From Squalus acanthias (Eukaryota), in the NCBI GenBank assembly GCA_030390025.1, contig JASTWF010000418.1, positions 62,001 through 126,000 of the forward strand: 64,000 nt of DNA. Direction: 5' to 3'. The stretch's first letter is position 1. The number at the start of each line of letters is the position of its first letter. The notes under the pieces are model-generated. The model saw only the letters and a program-made list of their open reading frames with translations, was not told the DNA's origin and did not search any database. Below, piece after piece: positions 7,671-40,500 of the stretch. The translations under genes were made by a program, and so were the position numbers.

Positions 7671-7775
7671 CCCTAACTAGTTCCCCCCTCACACATGCCG
7701 CCCTCCCCTACCCCAACCCCACCTCCCCTCCCCCTACCCTCTCCACCCCTCCCCCAGCCCCGATCGCTGACTCAC

Positions 7776-8096: not shown

Positions 8097-8279
8097 CTGA
8101 GGGGGGAAAACAAAACATGGATTAGGAGCCAGGAATCTGCGGGAATGAACTCAACGTCACCTCAGGGAGGCTGGAGGTCAAATCACGGCCCAGAGAGAGG
8201 GGCTGAAGGGTCCGCGCTCTCTGATGGGCAGTGGGTCAGAAAATGACCTCTCTCCCTCGGGAACCTGCAGATTCTGCAA

Positions 8280-15700: not shown

Positions 15701-17085
15701 GACCCTCAGTCCCACTGACCCCCAGCCCCTCTGACCCTCAGTCCCTATGACCCACAGTCCCAGTGACACTCAGACCCTCTGACCCTCAGTCCATCTGACC
15801 CTCAGTCCCTCTGACCCTCAGTCCCTCTGACCCTCAGCCCCTCTGACCCTCAGTCCCTCTGACCCACAGTCCCACTGACACTCAGTCCCACTGACCCTCA
15901 GTCCCACTGACCCTCAGTCCCTCTGACCCTCAGTCCCACTGACTCTCAGTCCCACTGACCCACAGACCCTCTGACCCTCAGTCCCTCTGACCCTCAGTCC
16001 CTCTGACACTCAGTCCCACTGACCCTCAGTCCCACTGACCCTCAGTCCCTCTGACCCTCAGTCCCACTGACTCTCAGTCCCACTGACCCACAGACCCTCT
16101 GACCCTCAGTCCCTCTGACCCTCAGTCCCACTGACCCACAGTCCCTCTGACCCTCAGTCCCTCAGACCCTCAGTCCCTCTGACCCTCAGTCCCACTGACC
16201 CTCAGTCCCACTGACCCAAAGACCCTCTGACCCTCAGTCCCTCTGACCCTCAGTCCCACTGACCCTCAGTCCCTCTGACCCTCAGTCCCTCTGACCCTCA
16301 GTCCCTCTGACCCTCAGTCCCACTGACCCTCAGTCCCTCTGACCCTCAGTCCCTCTGACCCTCAGTCCCTCTGACCCTCAGTCCCTCTGACCCTCAGTCC
16401 CTCTGACCCTCAGTCCCTCTGACCCTCAGTCCCTCTGACCCTCAGTCCCTCTGACCCTCAGTCCCACTGACCCTCAGTCTCTCTGACCCTCAGTCCCTCT
16501 GACCCTCAGTCCCTCTGACCCTCAGTCCCAGTGACCCTCAGTCCCTCTGACCCTCAGTCTCTCTGACCCTCAGTCCCTCTGACCCTCAGTCCCTCTGACC
16601 CTCAGTCCCAGTGACCCTCAGTCCCTCTGACCCTCAGTCCCTCTGACCCTCAGTCTCTCTGACCCTCAGTCCCTCTGATCCGCAGTCCCTCTGACCCTCA
16701 GTCCCTCTGACCCTCAGTCCCTCTGACCCTCAGTCCCTCTGACCCTCAGTCCCACTGACCCTCAGTCCCACTGACCCTCAGTCCCTCTGACCCTCAGTCC
16801 CTCTGACACTCAGGCCCTCTGACCCTCAGTCCCACTGATTCTCAGTCCCTCTGACCCTCAGTCCCGCTGACCCTCAGTCCCTCTGACCCTCAGTCCCTCT
16901 GACCCTCAGTCCCTCTGACCCTCAGTCCCTCTGACCCTCAGTCCCTCTGATCCTCAGTCCCTCTGACCCTCAGTCCCTCTGACCCTCAGTCCCTCTGACC
17001 CTCAGTCCCTCTGACCCTCAGTCCCTCTGACCCTGAGTCTCACTGACCCTCAGTCCCTCTGACCCTCAGTCCCTCTGACCCTCAG
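9744..17085. repeat. About 7.3-kb 16-bp satellite (ccctcagtccctctga)n
   Basis: Read directly; 8-bp half-units and larger internal block duplications. Confidence 0.97.
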
Positions 17086-17520
17086 AGTGCAGTGCTCCCT
17101 CAGTACTGCCCCTCCAACTGTGCAGCGTTTCCTCAGTACTGCCCCTCCGACAGTGCGGCGCTCCTTCAGTACTGCCCCTCCAACAGTGCAGCACTCCCTC
17201 AGTACTGACCCTCTGAAAATGCAGCGCTCCCTCAGTACAGCCCCTCCGACAGTGCTGTGCTCCCTCAGTACTGCCCCTCCGACAGTGCTGTGCTCCCTCA
17301 GTACTGCCCCTCCGACAGTGCGGTGCTCCCTCAGTACTGCCCCTCCGGCAGTGCGGCGCTCCCTCAGTACTGCCACTGAGACAGTTCCGCGCTCCCTCAG
17401 TACTGACCCTCCGACAGTGCGGCGCTCCCTCAGTACTGCCCCTCCGGCAGTGCGGCGCTCCCTCAGTACTGCCCCTCCGACAGTGCGGCGCTCCCTCAGT
17501 ACTGACCCTCATTCCCTCTG
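17086..17520. repeat. 33-bp tandem repeat (ctccctcagtactgcccctccgacagtgcggcg), probably SINE-derived
   Basis: 11-aa periodic ORFs; unit read directly. Confidence 0.85.
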
Positions 17521-17549
17521 ACCCTCTCCTCCCCTCAGTCCCGCCAACC

Positions 17550-20500
17550 GTTTCCACAGCCCTCTGGGGTAGATCATTCGAAAGATTCACAACCCTCTGA
17601 GTGAAGAAATTCCTCCTCATATCAGTCCTAATTGGCTGACCCATTATCCTGAGACTATGCCCCCTAGTTCTAGACACTCCAGCCAGGGGGAAACAACCTC
17701 TCAGCATCTACCCTGTCAATCCCCTTCAGAATCTTGTATGTTTCAATGAGATCACCTCTCATTCTTCTAAACTCCAGAGAGTATCGGCCCATTCTACACA
17801 ATCTCTCATCATAGGACACCCCTCTCATCCCAGGAATCAATCTAGTGAACCTTCGTTGCACCGCCTCCAAGGCAAGTATATCCTTCCACAGATAAGGAGA
17901 CCAAAACTGTGCCCAGTACTCCAGGTGTGGTCTCACCAAGGCCCTGTACAATTGTAGTAAGACTTCCTTACTCTTATACTCCAACCCCCTTGCAATAAAG
18001 GCCAACATGCCATTTGCCTTCCTAATTGCTTGCTGTACCTGTATGCTAGCTTTCTGTGTTTCTTGTATGAGTGAATACACCTGAATCTCTCTGAACACCA
18101 ACATTTAATAGTTTCTCACCATTTAAAAAAATACAGTTTTTCTATTCATCCGACCAAATTGAATAACCTCACCTGTCCCCTCTGGTTCTTTTGTCAAATA
18201 CCTTAAACCTGTGCTCTCTGGTGTCCGACCCTCCTGCCACTGGAAACAGTTTCTCCTTATTTCCTCCATCAAAACCCTTGTTGATTTTGAACACCTCTAT
18301 CAAATCTCCCCTTAACCTTCTCTGCTCTGAGGAGAACAACCCCAGCTTCTCCAGTCTCTCCACATATCTGAAATCATTCTTCCCTGGTACGCTCCCAGTA
18401 AATTTCCACTGCACCCTCTCTGGAATTTTTTGAGGCTGTAACTGGTAGAATAGATAAGGGAGAACCAGTAGATGTGGTGTATTTGGACTTTCAGAAGGCT
18501 TTCGATAAGGTCCCGCATAAGAGATTAGCGTGTAAAGCTAAGGCACATGGGATTGGGGGTAAGGTACTGACTTGGATAGAGAACTGGTTGGCAGACAGAA
18601 AGCAAAGAGTTGGAATAAACGGGTCTTTTTCCGAGTGGCAGGCAGTGACTAGTGGGGTACCGCAGGGATCGGTGCTAGGACCCCAGCTATTCACAATATA
18701 TATTAATGATCTAGACGAGGGAACTAGATATAATATCTCTAAGTTTGCAGACGACACAATGGGTGAAACTAGAACTAGGGGGCATAGTCTTAGAATAAGG
18801 GGCTGCTCTTTCAAAACTGAGATGAGAAGGAACTACTTCACTCAGAGGGTGGTAGGTCCATGGAATATGCTGCCCCAAAAAGCTGTAGAAGCTACATCAT
18901 TACATAAATTTAAAACAGAAACAGACAGTTTCCTAGAAGTAAAGGGAATTAAGGGTTACGGGATGCAGGCAGGAATTTGGACATGAGTCTAGGTTCGGAT
19001 CGGTCATGGCCCTGTGGGTAGCTTAGCGGGCCCAGGGGCCGTGTAGCCTGATCCTGCTCCTATTTCGTGTGTCCAATTCTGTTAGGTTCAGGAGATGGTT
19101 CTGTGATAGTAGATTGGCGGTTAGGATCAGATCAGCCATGATCTTATTGAATGGCGGAGCAGGCTCGAGGGGCCAATTTGCCTACTCCTGCTCCTTTTTC
19201 TTATGTTCTTATGTTCTTATTAAAGCTGGGTGGGCGTGTGTGCTGTGAGGAGGATGCAGAGAAACTCCAGTATGATTTGGACAGGTTGGGTAATTGGACA
19301 GGTGCATGGCAGATGCAGTATAATGTGGATAAATGCGAGGTTATCCACTTTGGTGGCAAAAACAGGAAGACAGATTATTATCTGAATGGCAATAGATTGG
19401 GAAAAGGGGAAGTGCAACGAGACCTGGGAGTCCTTGTGCACCAGTCACTGAAGGTAAGCATGCAGGTGCAGCAGGCGGTTAAGAAGGCAAATGGTATGTT
19501 GGCCTTCATAGTGAGAGGATTCGAGTACAGGAGCAAGGATGTCTTGCTGCAGTTGTACAAGGCCTTGGTGAGACAACACCTTGAGTATTGTGTGCAGTTT
19601 TGGTCGCCTTATCTGAGGAAGGATGTTCTTGCCATGGAGGGAGTTCAGCAAAGATTCACCAGACTGATACCTGGGATGGCAGGAATGACGTATGAAGAGA
19701 GATTGGGTCGATTAGGCTTATATTCGCTAGAGTTTCGAAGAATGAGAGGGGATCTCATTGAAACTTAGAAAATTCTAACAGGACTAGACAGACCAGATGC
19801 AGGAAGGATGTTCCCGATGGTGGGGGAGTCCAGAACCAGAGGCCACAGTCTAAGGACAAGGGGTAAGCCATTTAGAACTGAGATGAGGAGGAATTTCTTC
19901 ACCCAGCGAGTGGTGAACCTGTGGAATTCTCTACCACAGAAGGCAGTTGAGGCCAATTCATTAAATATATTCAAGAAGGAGTTAGATATATTTCTTAAGG
20001 CTAAAGGGATCAAGGGATATGGGGAGAAGGCAGGGACAGGGTACTGAGTTTGGATGATCAGCCATGATCTCATCGAATGGCGGAGCAGGCTCGAGGGGCC
20101 GAATGGCCTACTCCTGCTCCTATCTTCTATGTTTCTATGTTTCTGCCCAGAATTGGACTCAGTGCTCCAGTTGGGGCCTAACCAGTGATTTGTAAAGGTT
20201 TAGCATAACTTCCTTGGTTTTGTACTCTCCGCATCTATTAATAGACCCAAGGATCCTGTATACATTTTTAACAACCTTCTCAAATAGTCCTCCCATCTTC
20301 AAAGACTTGTGTACGTACACGCCCAAGGTCTCTCTCTTCCTGCACACTCTTTGAAATTGTATCATTTAGTTTATATTGCCTCTCAATTCTTCCGACCAAA
20401 ATGTATCACTTCGCACTTCTCTGCGTTAAACTTCATCTGCCATGTGTCTGCCCATTCCACCAGCCTGTCTCTGGCCCCCTGAAGTCTGCTACTATCCTCC

Positions 20501-22860
20501 TCACTGTTGACGACATTTCCGAGTTTTGTATCATCTACAAACTTGGAAATGATGCCCTGTAGACCCAAGTCTAGGTCATTAATATATATCAAAAAGAGCA
20601 GTGGTCCTAATACTGACCCCATGGGGGACACCACTGTATACTTCCCTCCAGTCTCAAAAACAACCGTTCACCACAACTCTCTGCTTTCTGTCTCTTAGCC
20701 AATGTTGTTATCCACGTAGACACTGTCCCTTTAATCAGAGAGTTAGAACATAAGATAAGAACGTAAGAAATAGGAGCTGGAGTCGGCCATTTGGCCCCTC
20801 GAGCCTGCTCCGCCATTCAATAAGATCATGGCTGATCTTCTACCTCAACTCCATCTTCCCGAACTAGCCCCATATCAATATTCAAAAATCTATCGATCTC
20901 TGTCTTGAATATACTCAATGACTGAGCCTCCACAGCCCTCTGGGGGAGAGAATTCCAAAGATTCACCACCCTCTGAGTGAAGAAATTTCTCCTCATCTCA
21001 GTCCTCAATGGCCGACCCCTTATTCTGAGACTGTGACCCCTGGTTCTAGACTCCCCAGCCAGGGGAAACATCCTCCCTGCATCTACCCTGTCAAGCCCTG
21101 TAAGAATGTTATATGTTTCAATGAGATCACCTCTCATTCTTCTAAACTCCAGAGAATATAAACCCAGTCTACTCAATCTCTCCTCATAGGACATTCCCCC
21201 CATCCCAGGAATCAGTCTGGTGAACCTTCGTTGCACTCCCTCTAAGGCAAGTATATCATTCCTTAGGTAAGGAGACCAAAACTGTACACAATACTCCAGG
21301 TGTGGTCTCACCAATGCCCTGTATAATTGTGGTAAGACTTCTTTACTCTTGTACTCTAATCCTTTTGTCACAAAAGCTAACATACCATTTGCTTTCCCAA
21401 TTGCTTGCTGTACCTGCATGTTAACTTTCTGTGATTCATGTACAAGGACACCCAGGTCCCTCTGAGTGCAAACATTTCCCAGTCCCTCACCATTCAAAAA
21501 ATATTCTGCTTTGTTGTTTTCCCTACCAACGTGGATAACTTCCCACTTCCCCACATTGTATTCCATTTGCCATGTTCTTGCCCACTCAGTCAACCTGTCT
21601 AATAGGCCCAGAAATTCCGATCGCAGGCCTCCCGCGGGCGGAGGGCTGCCATCTGGAAAAATCTCTCGCCTGGACCGGAGGGCTCCCGGGAGGCGCAGAG
21701 TTCGGCTGCTGGGCCTCTCCAAACTGTCGGTGCGCGGGGCCCACGTATCCCAGAGGCGCAGGCGGTTCACAGCGTCCCTGGGATCACGTGGGCCATGGGG
21801 AGCCAATCAGAGAAGGGAATCTCCCTTCATACATTTGACAGGAAGACCTGTCAAATATATGAATAGCGATCACCCCCAAAACATAGTAATGTTGAGGCTG
21901 CCGCGAAACACGAATTAAGGCTGAATCCATGTGTGTTAAACAAGAGAATTTTTAATCACTGCATGGCACAAAATGGCTGCACAGAAAAGCTCCCAGAATT
22001 CTCTGGGCAAACACTGAGGCCCCGCCCACTCCTGCCTTAAAGGTAAGGTGCCTTAAAGGGAAGGTGCTGGATATTTGTCCACGGACGGAAGAGTGGACAA
22101 TGCCCGTTTAGGTGGCGATCCGCCGCAGTAAAACTTCAATAAATTTTTTAAAAATCACATTTTTAAAATGAATTTAAATTACAATAAATTAAGTATTTTA
22201 AACAAAAATTTTATTTTTTGAAAAAAATTATTAAAGTTTTTAACGGGGCTAAAAATAAACTTACCTTTCTTTAAAGTATTTTTAAATGATAAATCAGTGG
22301 AAATTTTTTTTTTTTACTTTTTTCAACTCTTAGGCGCAAGAATTGTAAGTGTTTTCTGCGGGCGGAAGGTCTCCAAAAAACGGAACTCTCCCCCCGCAGA
22401 GGCCCTGCTCCCGGGCAGGCGGAGGATCTGTCAAGAGCTTTCTTGATCGATGGGAAATGCCGGTTTCCAGTGCATGCGCAGTGCATGACTAAAACCGGCA
22501 TTTCCGTTGGCCCTACGGGTGAGTACACAGCGCGTACACACCCGTAGGGAACGGAATTTCTGCCCCAATATCTCTCTGCAGCCTCTTTGCATCCTCCTCA
22601 CAGCTTACTTTCCCACCTAACTTTGTATCATCAGCTAACGTGGATACGTTACATTCAGTCCCTTCATCTAAGTCATGAATATAGATTGTAAATAGCTGAG
22701 GCCCCAGCACTGATCCTTGCGGGACCTCACTCGTTACAGCCTGCCAACCTGAAAAAGTCCCGTTTATTCCTACTCTCTGTTTTCTGTCCGTTAACCAATC
22801 CTCTATCCATGGTAATATAATACCCCCAATCCCATGAGCCCTAATTTTGTGCATAATAGA
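17550..22860. mobile_element. Cluster of nested, truncated CR1 LINE fragments on both strands
   Basis: RT motifs [31 protein letters not shown]; CR1 tails (tatgtttc)n; frameshifts and stops. Confidence 0.92.
21604..22566. mobile_element. Non-autonomous TIR element (PIF/Harbinger-like MITE) inserted in a CR1
   Basis: Ends aggcccagaaattccg / cggaatttctgcccc, AAT duplicated on both sides, CR1 resumes after it. Confidence 0.7.
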
Positions 22861-23049
22861 TAGGCGGGAGGAGGTTTTGGTGAGGAGGATTGGGTATAAA
22901 TAAAAGATCACAGGAACATGGGCAGTAGGAAGCAGTTTAATGGGTTATCAGTTGCAGGAATAGCGCACAGATTGTTAATGTCGGGAACTGGTCATAGGAG
23001 GGAGTTTAATGGGATAATATCTGGGATTGGCACTGGGTTAGGGGTGGGA

Positions 23050-23815
23050 TTGGGTGGGTGAGATGGTGGGTGGGTGAGATGGTGGGTGGGTGAGATGGTG
23101 GGTGGGTGAGATGGTGGTTGAGTTCGATGCCGGGTGGGTGAGATGGTGGGTGAGTTCGATGCCGGGTGGGTGAGTTCGATGCCGGGTGGGTGAGTTCGAT
23201 GCCGGGTGGGTGAGTTCGATGCCGGGTGGGTGAGTTCGATGCCGGGTGGGTGAGTTCGATGCCGGGTGGGTGAGTTCGATGCCGGGTGGGTGAGTTCGAT
23301 GCCGGGTGGGTGAGTTCGATGCCGGGTGGGTGAGTTCGATGCCGGGTGGGTGAGTTCGATGCCGGGTGGGTCAGTTCGATGCCGGGTGGGTGAGTTCGAT
23401 GCCGGGTGGGTGAGTTCGATGCCGGGTGGGTGAGTTCGATGCCGGGTGGGTGAGTTCGATGCCGGGTGGGTGAGTTGGATGCCGGGTGGGTGAGTTCGAT
23501 GCCGGGTGGGTCAGTTCGATGCCGGGTGGGTGAGTTCGATGCCGGGTGGGTCAGTTCGATGCCGGGTGGGTCAGTTCGATGCCGGGTGGGTGAGTTCGAT
23601 GCCGGGTGGGTGAGTTCGATGCCGGGTGGGTGAGTTCGATGCCGGGTGGGTCAGTTCGATGCCGGGTGGGTGAGTTCGATGCCGGGTGGGTGAGTTCGAT
23701 GCCGGGTGGGTGAGTTCGATGCCGGGTGGGTGAGTTCGATGCCGGGTGGGTGAGTTCGATGCCGGGTGAGTGAGTTCGATGCCGGGTGGGTGAGTTCGAT
23801 GCCGGGTGGGTGAGT
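23050..23815. repeat. 20-bp minisatellite (gccgggtgggtgagttcgat)n
   Basis: Read directly; highly homogeneous. Confidence 0.97.
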
Positions 23816-24099
23816 TACATTACAAGGATAGGTTTAATGATCGAACAGTCTATTGTTCAAGCAGCTTCCTACTCCATTGATCTCACAGACAGTAATAAGC
23901 AGTGGAGAGTGCTGGATCTGTCGAGAATGTTCAGCCGATGTGTATCTGGGATTTGCTGAAATCTCGTCCTTAATACGTCACGTGACCTGTTCGCTGAAAT
24001 TAAAAGAAATGAGTTTAAAAATGAGCCGGAGACCTGAACAGGTAAAAGTGTCGCTAAAACCACCAGCGATCTTCCTACTGATTGCAATTCAAGCAGTGT

Positions 24100-25590
24100 G
24101 TAGACACACCGTGCGCTACACCAGGCATGTACAGGTGTGTGTTACACACCAACCTCACACCAGGCATGTACAGGTGTGTGTTACACACCGTGCGCACACC
24201 AGGCATGTACAGGTGTGTGTTACACACCGTGCGCACACCAGGCATGTACAGGTGTGTGTTACACACCAACCTCACACCAGGCACGTAGAGGTGTGTGTTA
24301 CACACCAACCTCACACCAGGCATGTACAGGTGTGTGTTACACACCAACCTCACACCAGGCATGTAGAGGTGTGTGTTACACACCAACCTCACACCAGGCA
24401 TGTACAGGTGTGTGTTACACACCAACCTCACACCAGGCATGTACAGGTGTGTGTTACACAAAAACCTCACACCAGGCATGTACAGGTGTATGTTACACAC
24501 CGTGCTCACACCAGGCATGAACAGGTGTGTGTTACACACCAACCTCACACCAGGCATGTACAGGTGTGTGTTACACATCAACTTCACACCAGGCATGTAC
24601 AGGTGTGTGTTACACACCGTTGTCACAGCAGGCATGTACAGGTGTGTGTTACACACCAACCTCACACCAGGCATGTACAGGTGTGTGTTACACACCAACC
24701 TCACACCAGGCATGTACAGGCGTGTGTTACACACCGTGCTCACACCAGGAATGTACAGGTGTGTGTTACACACCGTGCTCACACCAGGCATGTACAGGTG
24801 TGTGTTACACACCGTGCTCACACCAGGCATGTACAGGTGTGTGTTACACGCCAACCTCACACCTGGCATGTACAGGTGTGTGTTACACACCGTGCTCACA
24901 CCAGGCATGTACAGGTGTGTGTTACACACCAACCTCACACCAGGCATGTACAGGTGTGTGTTACACACCAACCTCACACCAGGCATGTACAGGTGTGTGT
25001 TACACACCAACCTCACACCAGGCATGTACAGGTGTGTGTTACACACCGTTCTCACAGCAGGCATGTACAGGTGTGTGTTACACACCAACCTCACACCAGG
25101 CATGTACAGGTGTGTGTTACACACCAACCTCACACCAGGCATGTACAGGCGTGTGTTACACACCGTGCTCACACCAGGAATGTACAGGTGTGTGTTACAC
25201 ACCAACCTCACACCAGGCATGTACAGGTGTGTGTTACACACCGTGCTCACACCAGGCATGTACAGGTGTGTTTTACACACCAACCTCACACCAGGCATGT
25301 ACAGGTGTGTGTTACACACCGTGCTCACACCAGGCATGTACAGGTGTGTGTTACACACCGTGCTCACACCAGGCATGTACAGGTGTGTGTTACACGCCAA
25401 CCTCACACCTGGCATGTACAGGTGTGTGTTACACACCGTGCTCACACCAGGCATGTACAGGTGTGTGTTACACACCAACCTCACACCAGGCACGTACAGG
25501 TGTGTGTTACACACCGTGCGCACACCAGGCATGTACAGGTGTGTGTTACACACCGAGCTCGCAACACAACGAGCTCACACCAGGCATGTG
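24100..25590. repeat. 39-bp minisatellite with two interspersed unit variants
   Basis: cacaccaggcatgtacaggtgtgtgttacacacc followed by aacct or gtgct. Confidence 0.97.
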
Positions 25591-25594
25591 TGCT

Positions 25595-27510
25595 CCCACA
25601 GTGCTGTTAGGGAGGGATTTCCAGGATTTTGACCCAGTGACGATGAAGGAACGGCCGATATATTTCCAAGTCAGGATGGTGTGTGACTTGGAGGGGAACT
25701 TGGAGGTGGTGGTGTTCCCATGTGCCTGCTGCCCTTGTCCTTCTAGGTGGTAGAGGTCGCGGGTTTGGGAGGTGCTGCCGAAGAAGCCTTGGCGAGTTGC
25801 TGCAGTGCATCTTGTAGATGGTACACACTGCAGCCACGGTACGCCGGTGGTGGAGGGAGTGAATGTTTAAGGTGGTGGATGGGCTGCCAATCAAGCGAGT
25901 TGCTTTGTCCTGCATGTTGTCGAGCTTCTTGAGTGTTGTTGGAGCTGCACTCATCCAGGCAAGTGGAGAGTATTCAATCACACTCCTGCCTTGTGCCTTG
26001 TAGATGGTGGTAAGGCTTTGGGGAGTCAGGAGGTGAGACATTCGCCACGGAATGTATATTTGGATTTCCAAAAGGCATTCGATAAGGTGCCACATCAAAG
26101 GTTATTACACAAGATTAGGGCTCATGGGGTTGGGGGTAATATAGTGGCATGGATAGAGGATTGGTTAACAGACAGAAAACAGAGAGTAGGGATAAACGGG
26201 TCTTTTTCAGGTTGGCAGGCTGTAACGAGTGAGGTGCCGCAAGGATCAGTGTTGGGGCCTCAGCTATTTACAATCTATATTAATGACCTAGATGAAGGGA
26301 TCGAGTTTAATGTATCCAAGTTTGCTGATGATACAAAGCTAGGTGGGACAGTGAGCTGTGAGGAGAACACAAAGAGTCTGCAAAGGGATATAGATAGACT
26401 GAGTGAGTGGTCAGTAAGGTGGCAGATGGAGTATAATGTAGGGAAATGTGAGGTTATTCACTTTGGTAGGAAGAATAGAAAAACAGAATATTTTTTAAAT
26501 GGTGAGAAACTTTCAAATGTTGGTGTTCACAGAGATTTGGGTGTCCTCGCAGAAGAAACACAGAAAGCTAGCATTGCAGGTACAGCAAGCAATAAGGAAG
26601 GCAAATGGCATGTTGGCCTTTATTGCAAGGGGGTTGGAGTATAAGAGTAAGGAAGTCTTGCTACAATTGTACAGGGCCTTGGTGAGACCACACCTGGAGT
26701 ACTGGGCACTGTTCTGTTCTCCTTATCTAAGGAAGGATATACTTGCCTTGGAGGCGGTGCAACGAAGGTTCACTAGATTGATTCCTGGGATGAGAGGGCT
26801 GTCCTATGATGAGAGATTGTGTAGAATGGGCCGATACTCTCTGGAGTTTGGAAGAATGAGAGGTGATCTCATTGAAACATACAAGATTCTGAGGGGGATT
26901 GACAGGGTAGATGCTGAGAGGTTGTTTCCCCCTGGCTGGAGTGTCTAGAACTAGGGGGGCATAGTCTCAGGATAAGGGGTCGACCATTTAGGACTGAGAT
27001 GAGGAGGAATTTCTTCACTCAGAGGGTGGTGAATCTTTGGAATTCTCTGCCCCAGAGGGCTGTGAATGCTGAGTCTTTGAGTATATTCAAGGCTGAGATC
27101 GATAGATTTCTGGACTCTGGGGGAATCAAGGGATATGGAGATCGGGCGGGAAAGTGGAGTTGAGGTCGATGATCAGCCATGATCTCATTGAATGGCTCGA
27201 GGGGCCAATTGGCCGACTCCTGCTCCTATTTCTTTTGTTCTTATGTTCTTAGAATACCCAGCCTCTGACCTGCTCTTGTAGCCACAGTATTTATGTGGCT
27301 GGTCCAGTTAAGTTTCTGGTCAATGGAGCCCCCTAGGATGTTGATGGTGGGGGATTCGGCGATGGTAATGCTTTTGAATGTCAAGGGGCGGTGGCTAGAT
27401 TCTCTCTTGTTGGAGATGGTCATTGGCTGGCACTTGTGAGGCTCATATGTTACTTACCACTGATCAGCTCAGGCCTGGATGTTATTCAGCTCATGGTACA
27501 TGCGGGCATG
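25595..27510. mobile_element. Minus-strand HER1-like LINE fragment interrupted by a plus-strand CR1 (about 26052-27250)
   Basis: ORF 25607-26098 (..TIYKAQGRSVIEYSPLAW..) and 27241-27423 (..LGGSIDQKLNWTSHI..) flank CR1 RT ORFs 25991-26948. Confidence 0.8.
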
Positions 27511-27584
27511 GACTGCACCAACATTAAGAGGTATAGCACCAGGAGTCAGACCAGCAGATGTGGAGCAGGACTCACTCTATTCAA

Positions 27585-28110
27585 CAGTAGTGTCCCCACT
27601 GAGCACTGTAGACACCAGCAGAGGGCACCCTACATCACCAAAACCCGACAGCACCAAAACCATTCACAGTAGTGTCCCCACTGAAAACTGTAGACACCAG
27701 CAGAGGGCACCCTACATCACCATTACTATTCACAGCAATGTCCCCATTGAACACTGTAGACACCAGCAGAGGGCACCCCACATCACCATTACTATTCACA
27801 GCAATGTCCCCATTGAACACTGTAGACACCAGCAGAGGGCACCCCACATCACCCTGACTATTCACAGCAGTGTCCCCATTGAACACTGTAGACACCAGCA
27901 GAGGGCACCCTACATCACCCTGACTATTCACAGCAGTGTCCCCACTGAACACTGTAGACACCAGCAGAGGGCGCCCTACATCACCCAAACTGTTCACAGC
28001 AGTGTCCCCACTGAACACTGTAGACACCAGCAGAGGGTACACTACATCACCCTGACTATTCACAGCAGTGTCCCCATTGAACACCATAGACACCAGCAGA
28101 GGGCACCCTC
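27585..28110 (+). promoter_or_regulatory. 66-bp tandem repeat carrying 8 co-oriented CTCF-like cores (CCAGCAGAGGGCAC/GC)
   Basis: Cores start at 27615, 27697, 27763, 27829, 27895, 27961, 28027 (variant GGGTAC) and 28093; match the CTCF core CCASYAGRKGGCRS. Confidence 0.6.
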
Positions 28111-28149
28111 CAGCACCCAATTCAATCTTTGCACAAAACCTGTGATGGT

Positions 28150-28400
28150 GTGAGACTCGCCCCCTTCTGTTCTGCTGGTTAGAGAGACTCAGAGCCTCCC
28201 TTTCTCCTGGTCTGAATCTCGGCCCCTCCCTTTCTGCTGGTCTTAGACTCGGCCCCTCCCTTTCTGCTGGTCAGTGAGACTCGGCCCCTCCCTTTCTGAT
28301 GGTCAGTGAGACTCCGCCCCTCCCTTTCTGATGGTCAGTGAGACTCGGCCCCTCCCTTTCTGATGGTGTGATTCTCGGCCCCTTCCTTTCTGCTGGTCTG
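28150..28400. repeat. About 32-bp tandem repeat in the presumptive 3' UTR
   Basis: gtgagactcggcccctccctttctgatggtca. Confidence 0.85.
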
Positions 28401-28422: not shown

Positions 28423-28508
28423 CTACCTCTTCTGATCCAGCGATGGGATGGTCTCCATTTGAAGTTCACCCTGTGGCCAGAGACTGTTTCGCTGCATTCG
28501 GTAACTGC
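28423..28508 (-). CDS. Terminal cytoplasmic exon: [28 protein letters not shown]
   Basis: Strong polypyrimidine acceptor (tttttcctcttctcttccctcacctgcag); phase-1 join to the TM exon is open to TAG. Confidence 0.75.
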
Positions 28509-31500
28509 CTGCAGGTGAGGGAAGAGAAGAGGAAAAATATCAGCTTCAGTTTATCAGGAACCTCACACTGAGATCAGTCCAAATGGGCTTGATCCACCTG
28601 TCCGTGTACCTGGGGTCTGATCGACCTGTCTGTGTACCTGGGGTCTGATCCACCTGTCTGTGTACCTGGGCTCTGATCTACCTGTCTGTGTACCTGGGGT
28701 CTGATCCACCTGTCTGTGTACCTGGGGTCCGATCTACCTGTCTGTGTCCCTGGGGTCTGACCTACCTGTCTGTGTACCCGGGGTCTGATCTACCTGTCTG
28801 TGTACCTGGGGTCCGATCTACCTGTCTGTGTACCTGGGGTCAGACCTACCTGTCTGTCTGTGTGTTCTTTGTGAGATAAGATCACTCACTGTAATTACCG
28901 GACTGTAATCGGTCGCTAATTGCACAGTGATTTCCTCCAGTTCATTCCCGTTAAACCCCCTCACACACTCCGAACCTACCCTTTCTCTTCTGCCTGCAAG
29001 TCCTGATGCTGTGGGAAACGCTCAGGATGATGACTGTGTAGACGATCAGCCCACAGACCGCGAGGAGAATCCAGAGCCAGGCCCAGTCCCCGAGCTCTCC
29101 CCTCAATATCGAGGGCCCTGTGGGGAAGCAGAGGTTGAGAGGTGAGCGTGCTCCACATCTTGAAACCCCCTTAACATTCAGCAATCTGCTCAGGGTTATC
29201 TGGAGCGCAGAGTGGGGAGTTATTCAGCCGTGGGAGGGCGGAGATGGTTGGACACCCCCCCACCGCCCCCTCTTTTCAGAGGAGTGGGTGGGAGGAACAT
29301 TCACCTCGTCAGCCCATGGCCAACACACGGGCGAGATGTGGCTCGGGGGCCTGGGTCGCTGCTGAAAGACACTGAAAATAGCCCGCCAGAAATCTTCAGG
29401 AGCCAGTAACAAGCTTGACTGTCCCAGGTATTGTGTCCTTACATAACAGAGAGGGTTGATGAGGGTAGTGCGGTAGATGTCATATATCTGGACTTTCAAA
29501 AGGCGTTTGATAAAGTACCACATGTTAGCAAAATTTAAGCCCGTGGGATTAAAGGGACAGTGGCAGCATGGATTTGCCGAGGGGACAGAAAGCAGAGAGT
29601 AGTGGTGAACGGTTGTATTCCAGACTTGGGGGGAGTACACAGTGGAGTCCCCCAGGGGTCTGTATTGGGACCACTGCTCTTTTTGATATATATTAATGAC
29701 CTGGACTTGGGTATACAGGGCATCATTTCATAGTTTCTCGATGATACAAAACTCGGAAATGTAGTAAACAGTGAGGAGGATAGTAACAGACTTCAGGAGG
29801 ACACAGACAGACTGGTGGAATGGGCAGACACGTGGCAGATGAAGTTTAATGCAGAGAAGTGTCAAGAGATACATTTTGGTAGGAACAATGAGAAGAGGCA
29901 ATATAAACTAAAGGGTACAATTTTAAAGGGTGTGCAGGAACAGAGAGACATTGAGGGTGTATGTACACCAGTCCTTGAAGGTGGCAGGGCAGGTTGAGGA
30001 AGCAGTTAAAAAAGCATGCAGGATCCTCGGGGGAGAAATTCGGTATCGCCCCGTTTGGGGCACGATTATCGGCCGGGCACAAGGTTTAGCGCCTGGCGCT
30101 AATTATCGCCTCCGACTGCAAACTTGGCTTCTATCGCCCCTGGAGGTGATTGGAGCGCTAAATCAAGCGCTACACACCTCTCTTAAGGCACTAACGCCAA
30201 GGAGTGAGGCACTACCTCAGAGCGCTGGCGAAGCTCATGTGATGTCAGTCAGCAATGGAACACAGACACACTGGCGCCGGCCAGTTTTTAAAGGGGAGGG
30301 TCGATCTTGCTCTCCATCCACACCCTGCTCATTGCAGCCTTGAATCGCTGCCTGGAGAGACCTGTACATCAAATCTGCTGGAAAGAACAATGGAGAGGAC
30401 CAGGGAAAGAGCTCAGAGTGCAGCCCCCACAGTCTCTTCTAAATCGATGCAAGGAAGGTCAAATCAAAATGAACCTGCAAGGTGCTGCTCAGTACCCAAA
30501 ACTCCTTCACACAGCGTTGAATCTCTCCAGAAGACTCTCTCTCTCAGAATGCGTGGTGCAAAAATGTCGCCGACAAAAAAAGGCAGGAAGCGGTCGCCTT
30601 TAAATAGCACTCCCCCAGTCCCTTCCCGACTGCAAAACGCTCCCCTCAACTTGTCGTTGCTAGCGGCAGGCGGAAAGGCAGGGGGCGCCACTCAATATCC
30701 GGTCCGGGGCGCTACCGGGGCGTTGCACGTTTGACTGATGTCATGATCTGCGGGCGCAGGAGATCGTGGCGGTAGTGTTTAGCGCCTCCGCAAAATGTCT
30801 GGTCAATTTCGCGAGCGGCGCAAACATCGCCACGCCCGGGCGCTAGTTGCTTTGCGACCCATTAGCACCCTCTTAGGTGCAAAGCAACTGAATATATCCC
30901 CCCTTGATTTTATAAATAGAGGCACAGAGTACAAAAGCAAGGAAGTTATGCTAAACGTTTATAACACACTGGTTAGGCCTCAGCTGGAGCATTGTGTCCA
31001 ATTCTGGGCACCGCACTTTAGGAAGAACATCAAGGCCTTTGAGAGGGTGCAGAGGAAATTGACCAGAATGGTACCGGGGATGAGGGACTTCAGTTACGTG
31101 GAGAGACTGGAGAAGCTGGGATTGTTCTCCTTGGAGCAGAGAAGGTTAAGGGGAGATTGACCAGAATGGTACCAGGGATGAGGGACTTCAGTTACGTGGA
31201 CAGACTGGAGAAGCTGGGATTGTTCTCCTTAGAGCAGAGAAGGTTAAGAGGATATTTGATGGAGGCATTGAAAATCATGGCGGGTTTTGATAGAGTAAAT
31301 AAGGAGAAACTGTTTCCCGTGGCAGCAGAATACTTGCAGGGGAAACATTTTCAGGGCTATCGGCAAAGAGCAGGGGGGAGTGGGACTAATTGGATAGCTC
31401 TTTCAAAGAGCCGGCACAGGCACGATGGGCTGAATGTCCACCTCCTTCTGTGCAGGTACTATGACACTATGATCTCTGTCCTGCCTCCATGAAAGGCCAC

Positions 31501-34500
31501 ATCCAGACTAACCTTTGAAGACTAAAAAGCAATTAAAGTGGAGACACGGTGTCTAGAATTTCAACCGCCCGTAAGAACTTTATTATCTGGGTCACATTCC
31601 AAGGTATCTTTTAATCAGCGTTCAGCAGTTTGAGTGAACGATTGAGGAGGCGGCTTACACATGTTTACCTTAGGATAGATAACCAATCAGTGAAGGTGCA
31701 TGCGGGCCAAGATCCAATCAGGTTGCAGAAATAAATTTTGCATGAGGCTGGACATGTGTATTGTAATGTATAAAAATGTAGTGTTTGCTGTAACAATTTG
31801 GTGAAGTCTGTCTAAAGACAGAGCAGACTGTCTCCCCACCGGTGTAATAAAGATGACTTGATTATCGATCTAAAAACCTTGTGTCGAGTGTTGGTTTAAA
31901 ATTCTCCACAACAGGATCTTCACCACAAGGACTGCAGCGGTTCAAGAAGGCGGCTCACCACCACCTTCTCAAGGGCAATTAGGGATGGGCAATAAATGCC
32001 GGCCTTGCCAGCGACGCCCACATCCCAGGAACGAATTAAAAAAAAGAGGAACTGAAACCTACGCTGGTGGAGCAGAAGGAATGGGGGACGAGGAGAAGGA
32101 TGTTGGAGGAGTGATGGGAGGGCGCAGGGTTTTTTTAAGGAAGGAGGTCACAGACGAAAGGCACGGGGAGGATACGGAGGGAGGCGATCGCCAGGGTAAG
32201 AGTTTTGAGGTGAGTGGAGCTCAGAGCCTGGGGAGGGTTGGAGAGGACACGGGGCGGTGGGAGAGTGGGAAGACGTGGGCCATTGGGGGTTTGGGATGAG
32301 TTGGAGTTTGCCCAGGTCGGGTTGAGGAGACAGCCCGGAGAGGACTGCGGAGTGACCGGCGAGCGAGTCACGACGCGCGAGGACCGGGGAGAAGCTCCAC
32401 CCCCCTCACCAGAGGCTTCTTCACCTCGCTCCTTCCTGAGCACCCGTTCCACCAGTTCTTTCGAGGACCGGTGTCCCACCACACAGGAGTAGCTCTGGCC
32501 CCTCTCCCAGGCTTCCGACGGGACGGAGAGCTGGCTGACCGCGCCGAAGGTCCCGTTGCTGTCTGGGGTCACCGGGAAGGTGGTCCTTCCACTTGTGACC
32601 TCGCTGCCCTGGGTTCTCCAGGTCAAGTACACGTCTCCAGGGTAGAAACCGGACACAAAGCAGGCCAGAGTTGTCGTCCCATCGTTGAGGGAACCCTCCC
32701 GCTGTCCCACTTCCAAGGTGCATATTTCAGGGCTCCTCACCAGCTGGGCTGAAATCACAACAGGAATGGGTTTAGAAATCCCGGGAGGTGTAGAGAATTT
32801 CAGCCCCGGGTCCTGGGAGTCCCCCCATCTGGGACTGCAAACCATCCAGTGAATCACATCCCTCATCAATCCCCCATCAAAGACCATCTCCTGCTAATCT
32901 ATTCATCACACCAGACCCCCTACCTCTCCCATCGAAGCCCATCCCTCCAGTCCCCTAACTCTCCCATCGAAGCCCATCCCTCCAGACCCCAACCTCTCCC
33001 ATCGAAGCCTATCCCTCAGACTCCCTAACTCTCCCATTGAAGCCCATCCCTCTAGTCCCCTAACTCTCCCATCGAAGCCCATCCCGCTAGTCCCCTAACT
33101 CTCCCATCGAAGCCCATCCCTCCAGTCCCCTAACTCTCCCATCCAAGCCCATCTCTCAGGCTCCCTACCTCTCCCATCGAAGCCCATCCCTCTAGTCCTC
33201 TAACTCACCCATCGAAGCCCATCCCTCTAATCCTCTAACTCACCCATCGAAGCCCATCCCTCTAATCCCCTAACTCACAGATCGAAGCCCATCCCTCCAG
33301 TCCCCTAACTCTCCCATCAAAGCCCATCCCTCTAGTCCCCTAACTCTCCCATCGATGCCCATCCCTCTAGTCTCCTAACTCTCCCATCGAAGCCCATCCC
33401 TCTAGTCCTCTAACTCAACCATCGAAGCCCATCCCTCTAATCCCCTAACTCACAGATCGAAGCCCTTCCCTCTAGTCCCCTAACTCTCCCATCGAAGCCC
33501 ATCCCTCTAGTCCCCTAACTCTCCCATCGAAGCCCATACCTCTAGTCCCCTAACACTCCCATCGAAGCCCATCACTCTAGTCCCCTAACACTCCCATCGA
33601 AGCCCATCCCTCAAGTCTCCTAACTCTCCCATCGAAGCCCATCCCTCTAATCCCCAAACTCTTCCATCGAAGCCCATCCCTCTAGTCCTCTAACTCACCC
33701 ATCGAAGCCCATCCCTCTAGTCCCCTAACTCACAGATCGAAGCCCTTCCCTCTAGTCCCCTAACTCTCCCATTGAAGCCCATCCCTCTTGTCCCCTACCT
33801 CTCCCATCGAAGCCCATCCCTCTAGTCCCCTAACTCTCCCATCGAAGCCCATTCCTCTAGTCCCCTAACTCTCCCATCGAAGCCCATCCCTCTAGACACC
33901 TAACTCTCCCATCGAAGCCCATCCCTCTAGTCCCCTAACTCTCCCATCGAAGCCCATCCCTCCAGTCCCCTAACTCTCCCATCGAAGCCCATCCCTCCAG
34001 TCCCCTAACTCTCCCATCGAAGCCCATCCCTCTAATCCCCAAACTCTCCCATCGAAGCCTATCCCTCTAATCCCTAAACTCTCCCATCAAAGCCCTTCCC
34101 TCTAATCCCCAAACTCTCCCATCGAAGCCCATCCCTCTAGACACCTAACTCTCCCATCGAAGCCCATCCCTCCAGTCCCCTAACTCTCCCATCGAAGCCC
34201 ATCCCTCTAATCCCCAAACTCTCCCATCGAAGCCTATCCCTCTAATCCCTAAACTCTCCCATCAAAGCCCTTCCCTCTAATCCCCAAACTCTCCCATCGA
34301 AGCCCATCCCTCTAATCCCCAAACTCTACCATCGAAGCCCATCCCTCTAGTCCCCTAACTCTCCCATCGAAGCTCATACCTCTAGTCCCCTAACTCTCCC
34401 ATCGAAGCCCATCCCTCAAGTCTCCTAACTCTCCCATCGAAGCCCATCCCTCTAATCCCCAAACTCTCCCATCAAAGCCCATCCCTCTAGACCCCTAACT

Positions 34501-37500
34501 CTCCCATCGAAGCCCATCCCTCAAGTCCCCTAACTCTCCCATCGAAGCCCATACCTCTAGTCTCCTAACTCTCCCATCGAAGCCCATCCCTCAAGTCTCC
34601 TAACTCTCCCATCGAAGCCCATCCCTCTAGTCTCCTAACTCTCCCATCGAAGCCCATCCCTCTAATCCCCTAACTCTCCCATTGAAGCCCATACCTCTAA
34701 TTCCCGAACACTCCCATCGAAGCCCATCCCTCTAATCCCCGAACTCTCCCATCGAAGCCCACCCCTCTAGTCTCCCAACCCGTACTAGCTCCCCCTCACA
34801 CATGCCGCCCTCCCCTACCCCAACCCCACCTCCCCTCCCCCTACACTCTCCACCCCGCCCCCAGCCCCGATCGCTGACTCACCGTCTCCTGCAGTGATGG
34901 TGCTGGTTACTGGGGTTGTCAGTGCCTCGTGTGTAACCTCACAGGTGTAACTGGCCCCCGAACCCCAGTCCTCCCCTGACACCGTCAACTCACTCCTGGA
35001 CCTGTAGGTCCCGTCCGGGTTGGCAAGGCACGGCAGAGCCTGGGAGCCGCCGCCCACCTCCGACTCCGCACCGATCCACCGGAAGGATATCGTATCCGGG
35101 TAGAACCCAGTGGCGGCGCAGGCCAGCGTGGCGGTCTGATTGGTCAGAATCTCCTGGATCGAGGGAGCGACGAGGCGGACGGACGGAGGGGAGGGGGGAC
35201 GGGCTGAGGGGGGAAACAAAACATGGATTAGGACTGAGGAATCTGCGGGAATGAACTCAACGTCACCTGAGGTCCAGAGAGAGAGCTGAAGGGTCCTCGC
35301 TCTCTGATGGGCAGTGGGTCAGTAAGGAGAGCCTTGGCTTTATTAATAGAGGCATAGAGTACAAAAGCAAGGAAGTCAAGCTAAACCTGTTATAAATTAC
35401 TGGTTATGCCTCAACTGGAGTCTGGTGTCCAATTCTGGGCACCACACTTTAGGAAGGATGCCAAGGCCTTGGAGAGGGTGCAGAGGAGATTGACCAGAAT
35501 GGTACCAGGGATGAGGGACTTCAGTTACGTGGAGAGACTGGAGAAGCTGGGATTGTTCTCCTTAGAGCAGAGAAGGTTAAGTGGAGATTGACCAGAATGG
35601 TACCGGTGATGAGGGACTTCAGTTACGTGGAGAGACTGGAGAAGCTGGGATTGTTCTCCTTAGAGCAGAGAAGGTTAAGGGGAGATTTACCAGAATGGTA
35701 CCAGGGATGAGGGACTTCAGTTACGTGGAGAGACTGGAGAAGCTGGGGTTGTTCTCCTTGGAGCAGAGAAGGTTAAGAGGAGATTTAATCGAGGTGTTGA
35801 AAATCATGAATGGTTTTGATAGAGTAAATAAGGAGAAACTGTTTGCAGTTGCAGGAGGGTTGGTAAGCAGAGGACACAGATTAAGGTAATTGGAAAAAGA
35901 ACCAGAGGGGAGATGAGGAAACATCTTTTTACGCAGCGAGTTGTTGTGATCTGGAATGCGCTGCCTGAAAGGGCAGTGGAAGCAGATTCAATAGTAACTT
36001 TGAAAAGGGAATTGGATAACTACTTGAGGGGGAAAAATGTACAGGGCTGTGGGGAAAGAGCAGAGGAGTGGGACTAATTGGAGAGCTCTTTCAAAGAGCC
36101 GGCACAGGCACGATGGGCCGAATGGCCTCCTTCTGTGCGGGTACTACGATACTTCGATCTCTGTCCTGCCTTCTAAATCCAGAGTGGGAAAGGGAGGGAG
36201 TTGGGGTTAAGAGTTAGAGGTTGAGGTAAGGAGTTACGGTTTGGGTTTGGGTTTGGTTTTGAGGGGGTTTTACACAGTGGGGAAGCAGGGATAGGGTCCG
36301 GTTTGGGTGTTTAGTATTGGGTAAAGGTTAGGGTTCAGAGATAGAGTTACTGTTTAGAGGGAGCTTATGAAATCAGGAAGGGAAGTGATCAGAGAGAGGG
36401 ATTGGATTCCAGAGGACAGTAACATGGTGGCTGAAGAAGGAGGCCACTCAGCCCCTCAAGCCTGTCCCGCCATTCAATAGGAAGGATGTGATTGCATTGG
36501 AGAGGGTGCAGAGGAGTTTCACCAGGATGTTACTTGGGCTGGAGCGCTTCAGCTATGAAGAGAGACTGGACAGGCTGGGGTTGTTTTCCTTGGAGCAGAG
36601 AAGACTGAGGGGGGACCTGATTGAGGTGTACAAAATTATGAGGGGCATAGATAGGGAAGATAGAAATGAACTTTTCCCCTTAGTAGAGGGGTCAATAACC
36701 AGGGGGCATAGTTTCAAGGTAAGGGGCAGGAGGTTTAGAAGGGATTTGAGGAAAAACTTTTTCACCCAGAGGGTGGTTGGAATCTGGAACTCACTGCCTG
36801 AAAGGGTGGTAGAGGCAGGAACCCTCACAACATTCAAGAAGCATTTAGATGAGCACTTGAAACGCCATAGCATACAAGGCTACGGACCAAGTGCTGGAAA
36901 ATGGGATTAGAATAGACAGGGCTTGATGGCCGGCGCGGACACGATGGGCCGAAGGGCCTCTTTCTGTGCTGTGTAACTCTACGACTCTATGAGACCATGG
37001 CTGATCTGTACCACAACTCCATCTACTCGTCTTGGTTCCGTAACCCTTAGTACTTTTGCCGAGCAAAAGACCATCAATCTCAGCCTTGACATTTTCAATT
37101 GACACCCCCCCCAGCCTCAGCTGCTGTTTGGGAGAGAAAGCTCCCGATTACCACTACCCACAGCAAAGTGGTTGACTCTGAACTACCCTCTGCAATGGGC
37201 TGACGAGACAGTCAGTTGTATCGAACCGCTACAAGAAACTATAATAGGACTGCAGTGGGGAAAGAGTTAAACTGACATCGCCGGCTGTTTCCCTGAATGG
37301 TGGAAGAAAGACAGGGGCCAACATGAAAGGCCACATCCCAGACTGACCTTTGAAGACTAAAAAGCAATTAAAGTGGAGACAAGGGTGTCTAGAATTTCAA
37401 CCGCCCATAAGAACTTTATTATCTGGGTCACATTCCAAGGTATCTTTTAATCAGCGTTCAGCAGTTTGAGTGAACGATTGAGGAGGCAGCTTACACATGT

Positions 37501-40500
37501 TTACCTTAGGATAGATAACCAATCAGTGAAGGTGCATGCGGGCCAAGATCCAATCAGGTTGCAGGAATGAATTTTGCATGAGGCTGCCATGTCTATTGTA
37601 ATGTATAAAAATGTAGTGTTTGCTGTAACAATTTGGTGAAGTCTGTCTAAAGACAGAGCAGACTGTCTCCCCACCGGTGTAATAAAGACAGATTGATTAT
37701 CGATCCGAAAACCTTGTGTCGAGTGTTGGTTTAAAATACTCCACAACAGGACCTTCGCCACATGGACTGCAGCGGTTCAAGAAGGTGGCTCACCACCACC
37801 TTCTCAAGGGCAATTAGGGATGGGCAATAAATGCCGGCCTTGCCAGTGACGCCCACATCGCAGGAACGAATTTTAAAAAAGAAGAACTGAAACCTACGCT
37901 GTTGGAGCAGAAGGAATGGGGGACGAGGAGAAGGATGTTGGAGGAGCGATGGGAGGGTGCAGGGGTTTTTTCAGGAAGGATGCCACAGACGAAAGGCACG
38001 GGGAGGATATGGAGGGAGGCGATCGCCATGGTAAGAGTTTTGAGGTGAGTGGAGCTCGGAGCCTGGGGAGGGTTGGAGAGGACACGGGGCGGTGGGAGAG
38101 TGGGAAGACGTGGGCCATTGGGGGTTTGGGATGAGTTGGAGTTTGCCCAGGTCGGGTTGAGGAGACAGCCCGGAGAGGACTGCGGAGTGACCGGCGAGCG
38201 AGTCACGACGCGCGAGGACCGGGGAGAAGCTCCACCCCCCTCACCAGAGGCTTCTTCACCTCGCTCCTTCCTGAGCACCCGTTCCACCAGTTCTTTCGAG
38301 GACCGGTGTCCCACCACACAGGAGTAGCTCTGGCCCCTCTCCCAGGCTTCTGATGGGACGGAGAGCTGGCTGACCGCGCCGAAGGTCCCGTTGCTGTCTG
38401 GGGTCACCGGGAAGGTGGTCCTTCCGCTTGTGACCTCACTGCCCTGGGCTCTCCAGGTCAAGTACAGGTCTCCAGGGTAGAAACCGGACACAAAGCAGGC
38501 CAGAGTTGTCGTCCCATCGTTGAGGGAACCCTCCCGCTGTCCCACTTCCAAGGTGCGTATTTCAGGGCTCTTCACCAGCTGGGCTGAAATCACAACAGGA
38601 ATGGGTTTAGAAATCCCGGGAGGTGTAGAGAATTTCATTCCCCGGGTCCTGGGAGTCCCCCCATCTGGGACTGCAAACCATCCATTGAATCACATCCATC
38701 ATCAATCTCCCATCAAAGACCATCTCCTGCTAATCTATTCATCACACCAGATCCCCTACCTCTCCCATCGAAGCCCATCCCTCCAGACCCTAACTCTCCC
38801 ATCGAAGCCCATCCCTCCAGTCCTCTAACTCGCCCTTTGAAGCCCATCCCTCTAGTCCCCTAACTCTCCCATTGAAGCCCATCCCTCCAGTCCTCTAACT
38901 CTCCCATCGATGCCCATCCCTCTAGTCCTCTAACTCACCCATCGAAGCCAATCCCTCTAATCCCCTAACTCACAGATCGAAGCCCATCCCTCTCATCCTC
39001 TAACTCTCCCATCGAAGCCCATCCCTCTAGTCTCCTAACTCTCCCACTGAAGCCCTTCCCTCCAGTCCCCTAACTCTCCCATCAAAGCCCATCCCTCTAG
39101 TCCCCTAACTCTCCCATCGAAGCCCATCCCTCTAGTCCCCTAACTCTCCCGTCGAAGCCCATCCCTCTAGTCACCTAACTCTCCCATCAAAGCCAATTTT
39201 TCTAGTCCCTTAACTCTCCCATCAAAGCCCATCCCTTTAGTCCGCTAACTCTCCCATCAAAGCCAACTTTTCTAGTCCCCTTACACTCCCATCGAAACCC
39301 ATCCCTCTGCTACCCTTAATCTCCCATCGAAGCCCATCGCTCTAGTCCCCGAACTCACCCATCGAAGCCCATCCCTCTAGTCCCCTAACTCTCCCATCGA
39401 GGCCCATCCCTCTAATCCCCGAACTCTCCCATCGAAGCCCATCCCTCTAGTCTCCCAACCCTAACTAGTTCCCCCCTCACACATGCCGCCCTCCCCTACC
39501 CCAACCCCACCTCCCCTCCCCCTACCCTCTCCACCCCGCCCCCAGCCCCGATCGCTGACTCACCGTCTCCTGCAGTGATGGTGCTGGTTATTGGGGTTGT
39601 CAGTGCCTCGTGTGTAACCTCACAGGTGTAACTGGCCCCCGAACCCCAGTCCTCCCCGGACACCCTCAACTCACTCCTGGACCTGTAGGTCCCGTCCGGG
39701 TTGGCAAGGCACGGCAGAGCCTGGGAGCCGCCGCCCACCTCCGACTCCGCACCGATCCACCGGAATGATATCGTATCCGGGTAGAACCCAGTGGCGGCGC
39801 AGGCCAGCGTGGCGGTCTGATTGGTCAGAATCTCCTGGATCGAGGGAGGGACGAGGCGGACTGACGGAGGGGAGGGGGGACGGGCTGAGGGGGGAAAACA
39901 AAACATGGATTAGGAGCCAGGAATCTGCGGGAATGAACTCAACGTCACTTCAGGGAGGCTGGAGGTCAAATCACGGCCCAGAGAGAGGGGCTGAAGGGTC
40001 CTCGCTCTCTGATGGGCAGTGGGTCAGAAAATGACCTCTCTCCCTCGGGAACCTGCAGATTCTACAAAGTAGTTACAGCACAGAAACAGGCCATTTGGCC
40101 CAACTGGTCCATGCCGGTGTTTATGCTCCACTCGATCCTCCTCCCACCCTTTTCATCGAATCCCATCAGCATATCCTTCTACCCCTTTCTCCCTCTTATA
40201 CTTACCTGGTTCCCCTTAAATGCATCTCTGCTTTTCATCTCCATCACTCCCTGTGGTAGCGAGTCCCACATACCCACCACTCTCTGGGTAAAGAAGTTTC
40301 TCCTGAATTCCCGATTGGATTTATCAGTGACTATCTTATATTGACGGCCCCTAGTTCTGGTCTCACCCACAAGTGGAAATATCTTCTCTACGTCTTCCCT
40401 ATCAAACCCTTTCATCATCTTAAAGACCTCTATCAGGTCACCCCTCAGTCTTCTCTTTGCCAGAGAAATGTGCCCCAGGCTGTTCAGTCTTTCCTGATGG

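Follow-up and report, generated by a model that had tools for sequence, protein, structure and literature searches.

The window, a stretch of 64,000 nucleotides taken from positions 62,001 to 126,000 of a 416,886-bp contig (C3243) that we analysed as a whole, carries on its minus strand C1-set exons of five types (Pfam C1-set, 68-78 bits), a transmembrane (TM) exon and a short last exon, with in-frame splicing (Table 1). The seventeenth C exon, the V exon and the leader of this gene sit just outside the window (L028), the V exon lying 2.6 kb away and already including the G strand. The best match of the V exon is UrIg2 (PDB 9dmx; E 3e-52, the runner-up being at 3e-8), and one C exon matches the same protein at E 1.5e-54. 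A scan of the contig for RSSs found none, whereas the same scan gave many in the IgM/TCR region of C29. The single-exon VJ, the multiple C1 exons, the TM exon, the lack of RSSs and the best match are those of the UrIg2 family, and the gene beside the array described below is not IgH but UrIg2, a shark gene of V-C1n-TM structure that does not rearrange. An IgH identity was considered and rejected on the RSS and best-match results and on a TM devoid of the IgH-type motif seen on C29. UrIg2 is a candidate relic of a pre-RAG antigen receptor.

Table 1. Features of the window, numbered from its first nucleotide
Feature	Position	Strand	Remark
C exons of the neighbouring UrIg2 copy	1..9243	-	Cut off by an assembly gap
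Upstream spacer of the next UrIg2 copy	9744..27575	.	16-, 33-, 20- and 39-bp repeats and LINE pieces
66-bp minisatellite	27576..28119	+	8 units, each with a CTCF core; the shortest of the six such arrays of C3243
First CTCF core	27615..27628	+	Perfect match to CCASYAGRKGGCRS as printed in PMC6746451
Single degenerate core	28027..28040	+	C to T at core position 12
Last CTCF core	28093..28106	+	316 bp from the stop codon
32-bp minisatellite	28150..28398	.	Without CTCF core, between array and stop codon
UrIg2 last (cytoplasmic) coding exon	28423..28508	-	TAG end
UrIg2 transmembrane exon	28980..29117	-	AG/GT sites, in frame with the last exon
C1-set exons of the window UrIg2 copy	32400..61981	-	16 of 17 exons, five types

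The gene shares with UrIg2 of nurse shark and other elasmobranchs the split leader, the single-exon VJ, the TM and the short tail (PMC12227049; PDB 9dmx), as well as many C1 exons arising from two-exon duplications (PMC12227049). The copy number differs: 1-3 gene models per species are given for UrIg2 elsewhere (Table S1 of PMC12227049), whereas C3243 carries in this assembly at least eight whole or partial copies, one of them inverted, the five complete ones having 17, 7, 15, 7 and 7 C exons. The C exons include two C types between the C1-like and the C2/C3-like exons. Seven V exons and six TM exons are present on the contig, UrIg2 exons are 97-99% alike between copies, and a genome search for the TM exon returned six copies, all on C3243. 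The cassette repeated in this way measures 47-80 kb; the 5' exons of the neighbouring copy in the window are missing at a 500-N assembly gap (window 9244-9743). This expansion in copy number and domain number may interest comparative immunologists more than the array itself.

Some other elements of the cassette were observed. Inside a 16-bp satellite, a promoter-like block lying 5' of the leader exon of UrIg2 occurs up to four times per copy (L028:7060-7210 and 9040-9340). A short inverted telomere-like stretch (TTAGGG/CCCTAA units) lies within a 67-bp intron array (window 57779-57834). The introns also hold two copies of an LTR-like stretch (window 59064-59858 and 62300-64000), the second of which is split by an 850-bp element also found at window 30029-30875.

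An earlier note, made from the letters of the window, had described eight co-oriented CTCF-core matches in a 66-bp repeat of minisatellite origin, about 310 bp past the stop codon and directed at the gene body, and each of these points was borne out. The eight cores start at 27615, 27697, 27763, 27829, 27895, 27961, 28027 and 28093, all on the plus strand, with a spacing of 82 bp once and then six times 66 bp; the first unit contains a 16-bp insertion. TRF gives a period of 66, 6.9 copies and 93% matches. The end of the last core is separated by 316 bp from the UrIg2 stop codon (28425-28423, minus strand), and the unit contains zero CpG. Seven cores, the GGGCGC variant among them, are exact matches to CCASYAGRKGGCRS, given as a CTCF consensus in PMC6746451, and the remaining one (GGGTAC) has a single mismatch. 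No further match with at most one mismatch was detected on either strand of the 64-kb window, and shuffles of the window gave a mean of 1.18 and a maximum of 4 matches, as against the 8 real ones, which count as one event and not eight since the units are copies of one another. The core of the window array differs by two mismatches from the mouse mVH-CTCF consensus, for which 77% of predicted sites are reported as bound in vivo (PMC6746451). Neither AATAAA nor ATTAAA is present between stop codon and array in six of six UrIg2 copies; in the absence of such a canonical poly(A) signal, transcription may continue through the array.

Six 66-bp arrays are present on C3243, one 3' of each of the six UrIg2 3' ends, with 61, 8, 21, 144, 34 and 54 units (322 in total), and they begin 270-370 bp past the stop codon. 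The array is thus found 3' of the paralogs, at all six TM-exon copies. A perfect core was counted in 190 of the 322 units (50-62% of cores in the four longest arrays), and 289 matches were obtained with at most one mismatch, all on the plus strand and each facing the gene of its own array. The rest of the 417-kb contig contains one such match (389,403, minus strand), which is not above chance, and no convergent partner sites above chance were found within the contig. The unit was not seen as a dispersed repeat: all of the best candidate regions, which were the ones scored (6/6), and all of the 150 matches listed, out of 231, are on C3243, and a genome-wide dispersal was rejected on this basis. 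Left of each of the six arrays lies a similar spacer made of 39-, 20-, 33- and 16-bp repeats and LINE pieces, and the promoter block of the next copy is located 10-25 kb left of the array in the five gap-free cases. The satellite/LINE block to the left, from which the array was suggested in the earlier note to separate the gene, corresponds to this spacer and belongs to the cassette of the next UrIg2 copy.

The array was also found in other samples, among the 8 sequencing runs examined out of 24 listed. Organisms D and E each gave one 420-bp contig covering window 28060-28242 and 28374-28601, in which the last unit is joined to the last exon and which is ~10% diverged over the last exon and flank. 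Read depth peaks over the array in organisms B, D, E and G (divergence of the TM regions ~4-9%), and a second sample of organism A also carries it. These observations indicate that the array is not an artefact of this assembly and that it predates these splits. Three runs, guessed to be RNA, have reads over the intron as well as over the array and thus give no evidence of a 3' UTR.

In order to analyse the variation between units, the 322 units, chosen by whole-unit identity and not by core, were placed in a gapped alignment, and the 10 minisatellite families with enough units on C3243 were compared by column permutation. The 66-bp family was the sole one with a significantly invariant 10-bp window (divergence 0.0033 vs a mean of 0.065, 0/5,000 permutations), the other nine giving p = 0.054-0.65 by divergence, and an allele-count test gave p = 0.0002 for the 66-bp family and 0.049 for the next one, all p values being generous since the units are related by concerted evolution. 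The invariant window consists of the two bases 5' of the core and core positions 1-8. At positions 1-8, only 5 of 2,576 cells are off-consensus and alleles seen at least three times amount to 0.125 per column vs 1.41, while rare alleles, some of which may be assembly errors, are not depleted (0.63 vs 0.71), suggesting that changes arise at these positions but do not spread. At positions 9-14, 151 of 1,932 cells are off-consensus (7.8%), which is similar to the flank divergence of ~7%; three substitutions make up 88 of the 151, and a G-run deletion is found in 13 units. Genome-wide, the classes of these three substitutions reach 1.25-1.8 times the control frequency after a rough Markov correction, the background of which, taken from fetched stretches, is too high (GC 46%) and served for ratios only; the degenerate class with C to T at position 12 has 2,767 matches vs 705 for a reversed control. 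Over the pre-chosen 14-bp core, the divergence is 0.048 vs 0.070 (p = 0.23; p = 0.019 for common alleles), and core intactness ranked 23 of 66 when the mask was slid round the unit. The upstream 10-bp motif, tied to CTCF insulator activity (PMC12885311), is absent from the unit at a 2-7 bp linker, the best match being 5/10, a score that 13 of the 132 positions around the unit equal or exceed. Taken together, these comparisons of units give real but partial evidence of selection. Each UrIg2 copy has its own array, in a single orientation facing its own gene and with a near-invariant 5' half of the core.

We then considered the core in the genome as a whole. Perfect cores number 6,395 vs 942 for a control in which G at core position 7 was changed to T, meaning that ~85% of them are in excess of chance and that a perfect core in this genome, judging by these counts, is usually not there by chance. 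With 190 of the 6,395, C3243 holds 3.0% in 0.011% of the DNA. This one-base control (942 single, 2 tandem) was used instead of the reversed pattern (151 single, 1 tandem) because the reversed motif holds a fixed CpG and overstates the enrichment. Tandem core pairs 40-70 bp apart amount to 402 vs 2 for the one-base control, a count of which a few long arrays supply much (116 pairs on C3243, plus an array of >20 kb on C20). CTCF core and upstream motifs are described as identical from lamprey to mammals (PMC5504073), and oriented CTCF motifs have been reported at skate TAD borders (PMC10115646).

Several other repeats with CTCF cores were noted. The C20 array region (C20:7,196,600-7,221,600; L098-L100) extends over >20 kb with 40-bp units and a CTCF core in each, exceeding every UrIg2 array, and the 50 kb examined there contain 185 perfect cores and 373 with at most one mismatch. 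On C19, near a chromosome end, a 55-bp CTCF-core repeat occurs at three places (314-321 kb, 548-550 kb and 3,448-3,449 kb; L103-L105) as inverted pairs of short arrays oriented apart. On C1 (100,828,126-100,852,026), thirteen one-mismatch CTCF-like cores recur every 1,990 bp, which suggests a macrosatellite.

We give about an even chance to the reading in which the array is an amplified CTCF site that was copied with the UrIg2 cassette, is likely bound by CTCF and would act as a one-way barrier between the 3' end of one copy and the promoter of the next. A single CTCF site 3' of the ancestral UrIg2 would have been amplified by slippage before the gene duplications, and the array would then have been duplicated along with the whole cassette. 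CTCF binding is predicted from the cores and likely and, given such binding, the arrays would fence neighbouring UrIg2 copies from each other. The ZF3 side of CTCF would face the gene (PMC12885311), and bound sites may stall cohesin or extrusion arriving from the gene side, shielding the promoter of the next copy; alternatively, the array could block transcriptional read-through. Each 47-80 kb cassette would thereby be regulated independently, and transcription through the array could evict CTCF where the gene is active. Tandem CTCF sites have been reported to add strength (PMC7087399, PMC11828424), and, provided that a few good sites are retained, the number of units (8-144) can likely drift freely. 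The CTCF-barrier reading is favoured by the over-representation of perfect cores, by a window invariance unique to the 66-bp family, by the depletion of common but not of rare alleles at positions 1-8, by the lack of CpG in the unit, by the closeness of the core to the mouse mVH-CTCF consensus, by the oriented motifs of skate TAD borders and by the junction of last unit and last exon in organisms D and E. It is weakened by the unconstrained 3' half of the core, the non-significant divergence of the pre-chosen 14-bp core, the small excess of the common 3' variants over the control, the absence of the upstream motif, the lack of a convergent partner on the contig and of a poly(A) signal before the array, and the report that non-boundary sites arranged in tandem do not necessarily insulate (PMC11828424).

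A less probable but serious possibility is that the array is a neutral passenger, one of many minisatellites of the cassette, in which a chance CTCF site, bound or not, plays no role for UrIg2. Indeed, almost every intron and spacer of the cassette contains a minisatellite, the number of units varies 18-fold, only 50-62% of the cores of the four longest arrays are perfect, and the six arrays represent one origin copied six times. Furthermore, tandem pairs of CTCF cores occur with unrelated units of ~20-68 bp at at least 17 other loci among the first 100 of 402 matches listed (the census of core arrays being taken from 100 of 402 and 100 of 222 matches listed), and the control rate (2 loci per 942 sites), scaled to 6,395 sites, predicts ~14 loci with a wide error, so that the number of arrays may be near the level expected from slippage only. 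A passenger, however, does not readily account for an invariant window that falls on the core in the 66-bp family alone, for the depletion there of common alleles and not of rare ones, or for the persistence of the array at the same position in other organisms.

The CTCF-barrier reading can be extended: each UrIg2 copy would have its own selected, length-variable barrier (8-144 sites), whose length would tune independent expression, and CTCF occupancy would bias the spread of units. We consider this extended form unlikely.

More doubtful still is a cause for the invariance of the 10-mer other than selection on CTCF binding: conversion or slippage with a bias centred on it, recognition by a different zinc-finger protein, or a function within a long 3' UTR. 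The constraint takes in three degenerate positions of the core as well as the two bases preceding it, ends before the GGC that CTCF also needs, and no canonical poly(A) signal precedes the array, all of which would fit such causes. The 5' half of the core is also tighter than the 3' half in five of eight other measured arrays, in keeping with a mutational process common to such sites; however, these eight arrays were found through perfect cores and are hence biased, and a bias that follows CTCF cores in unrelated units would still point to CTCF occupancy as its cause. As for a UTR, the coverage of both array and intron in the three guessed-RNA runs does not show one. A Chi-like reading of the reverse strand was also considered and dropped, as we know of no eukaryotic mechanism for a Chi-like element.

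As a kind, CTCF-site minisatellites are already known. Like DXPas34 of mouse Xist/Tsix, the arrays are made of head-to-tail short units (66 bp) with one co-oriented CTCF motif in each monomer and a variable number of sites (between species in DXPas34; 8-144 per array here), and they lie 3' of one gene and near the promoter of another (PMC3149622). DXPas34 is CpG-rich and occurs at a single locus, whereas the shark unit is without CpG and is repeated with each gene copy (PMC3149622). The simple tandem repeats bound by CTCF/BORIS in human are likewise low-copy, with a CTCF consensus per unit and clustered sites, but their binding was measured while that of the shark array is predicted (PMC5007689). 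In the DXZ4/ICCE macrosatellites, which are involved in inactive-X superloops, tandem organisation and position are kept and the CTCF motif is the best-conserved part (PMC6125249), and the 1q23.3 tRNA VNTR has a CTCF site in each unit of a repeated cassette (PMC4041453). Both have kilobase units, in contrast to the 66-bp units nested here in a 47-80 kb gene repeat (PMC6125249, PMC4041453). A term search of the main text of the UrIg2 paper (PMC12227049) returned no mention of CTCF, and our searches of the literature outside subscription journals and bioRxiv supplements found no report of the 3' array. If bound, the six arrays would form a natural dose series of a single insulator sequence (8, 21, 34, 54, 61 and 144 sites) next to genes that are 97-99% identical, which would directly test whether the strength of insulation in a vertebrate genome is set by the number of sites, and would provide the first evidence on UrIg2 regulation. 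If unbound or without effect, the array would be one more shark minisatellite.

Finally, the array had been likened in the earlier note to the IgH 3' CBE super-anchor, a resemblance that stands as an analogy only, UrIg2 being non-rearranging and the array being present with each gene copy. In the mouse IgH 3'CBE as in the shark array, several CTCF elements follow an Ig constant region, with a proposed insulation of what comes after them (PMC7826415); the geometry is the same, with several co-oriented cores 3' of an Ig-like gene and facing it, and in four other cartilaginous fish UrIg2 shows linkage to IgH/TCR-alpha-delta (PMC12227049). The mouse element, however, is a single cluster at the end of the locus, in which 10 CBEs lie beyond the 3' regulatory region (3'RR), and it serves class switching, a recombination process, whereas the shark has a minisatellite for each non-rearranging gene copy (PMC7826415). 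The array does not lie 3' of a rearranging IgH locus, the gene being UrIg2 with a single VJ exon and no RSS on the contig, and it recurs within the cluster as six arrays, one per gene copy, instead of a single cluster at the locus end. Moreover, UrIg2 is described as an elasmobranch gene that does not rearrange and whose expression is in gill and liver (PMC12227049), and no array was found 3' of the constant exons in three IgM clusters, one IgNAR cluster and an IgL stretch with several clusters, a sample of 400 kb from three Ig regions that represents a small share of many clusters (150 of 836 C1 candidates scored). Homology with IgH 3'CBE is thus largely refuted, and it is highly improbable that the array is an equivalent or a precursor of the super-anchor found in mammals at the end of an antigen-receptor locus.

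The Ig regions sampled on C29 gave some observations of their own. In C29:7,590,001-7,790,000 (L058-L077), IgM miniclusters are intermixed with TCR-alpha/delta-like V segments, and two IgM clusters (C29:7,615,554 and 7,663,692) each have an apparently germline-joined VDJ exon, the two exons being identical in printed sequence. The same 200 kb contain ~36 single CTCF-like sites, many of them <1 kb 3' of V exons or RSSs and resembling in this respect the RSS-associated sites of mouse VH genes. Further along (C29:17,070,000-17,077,300; L078-L079), five minus-strand CTCF cores, four of them at a spacing of 600-800 bp, form a group located ~31-38 kb 5' of an IgNAR-like V exon.
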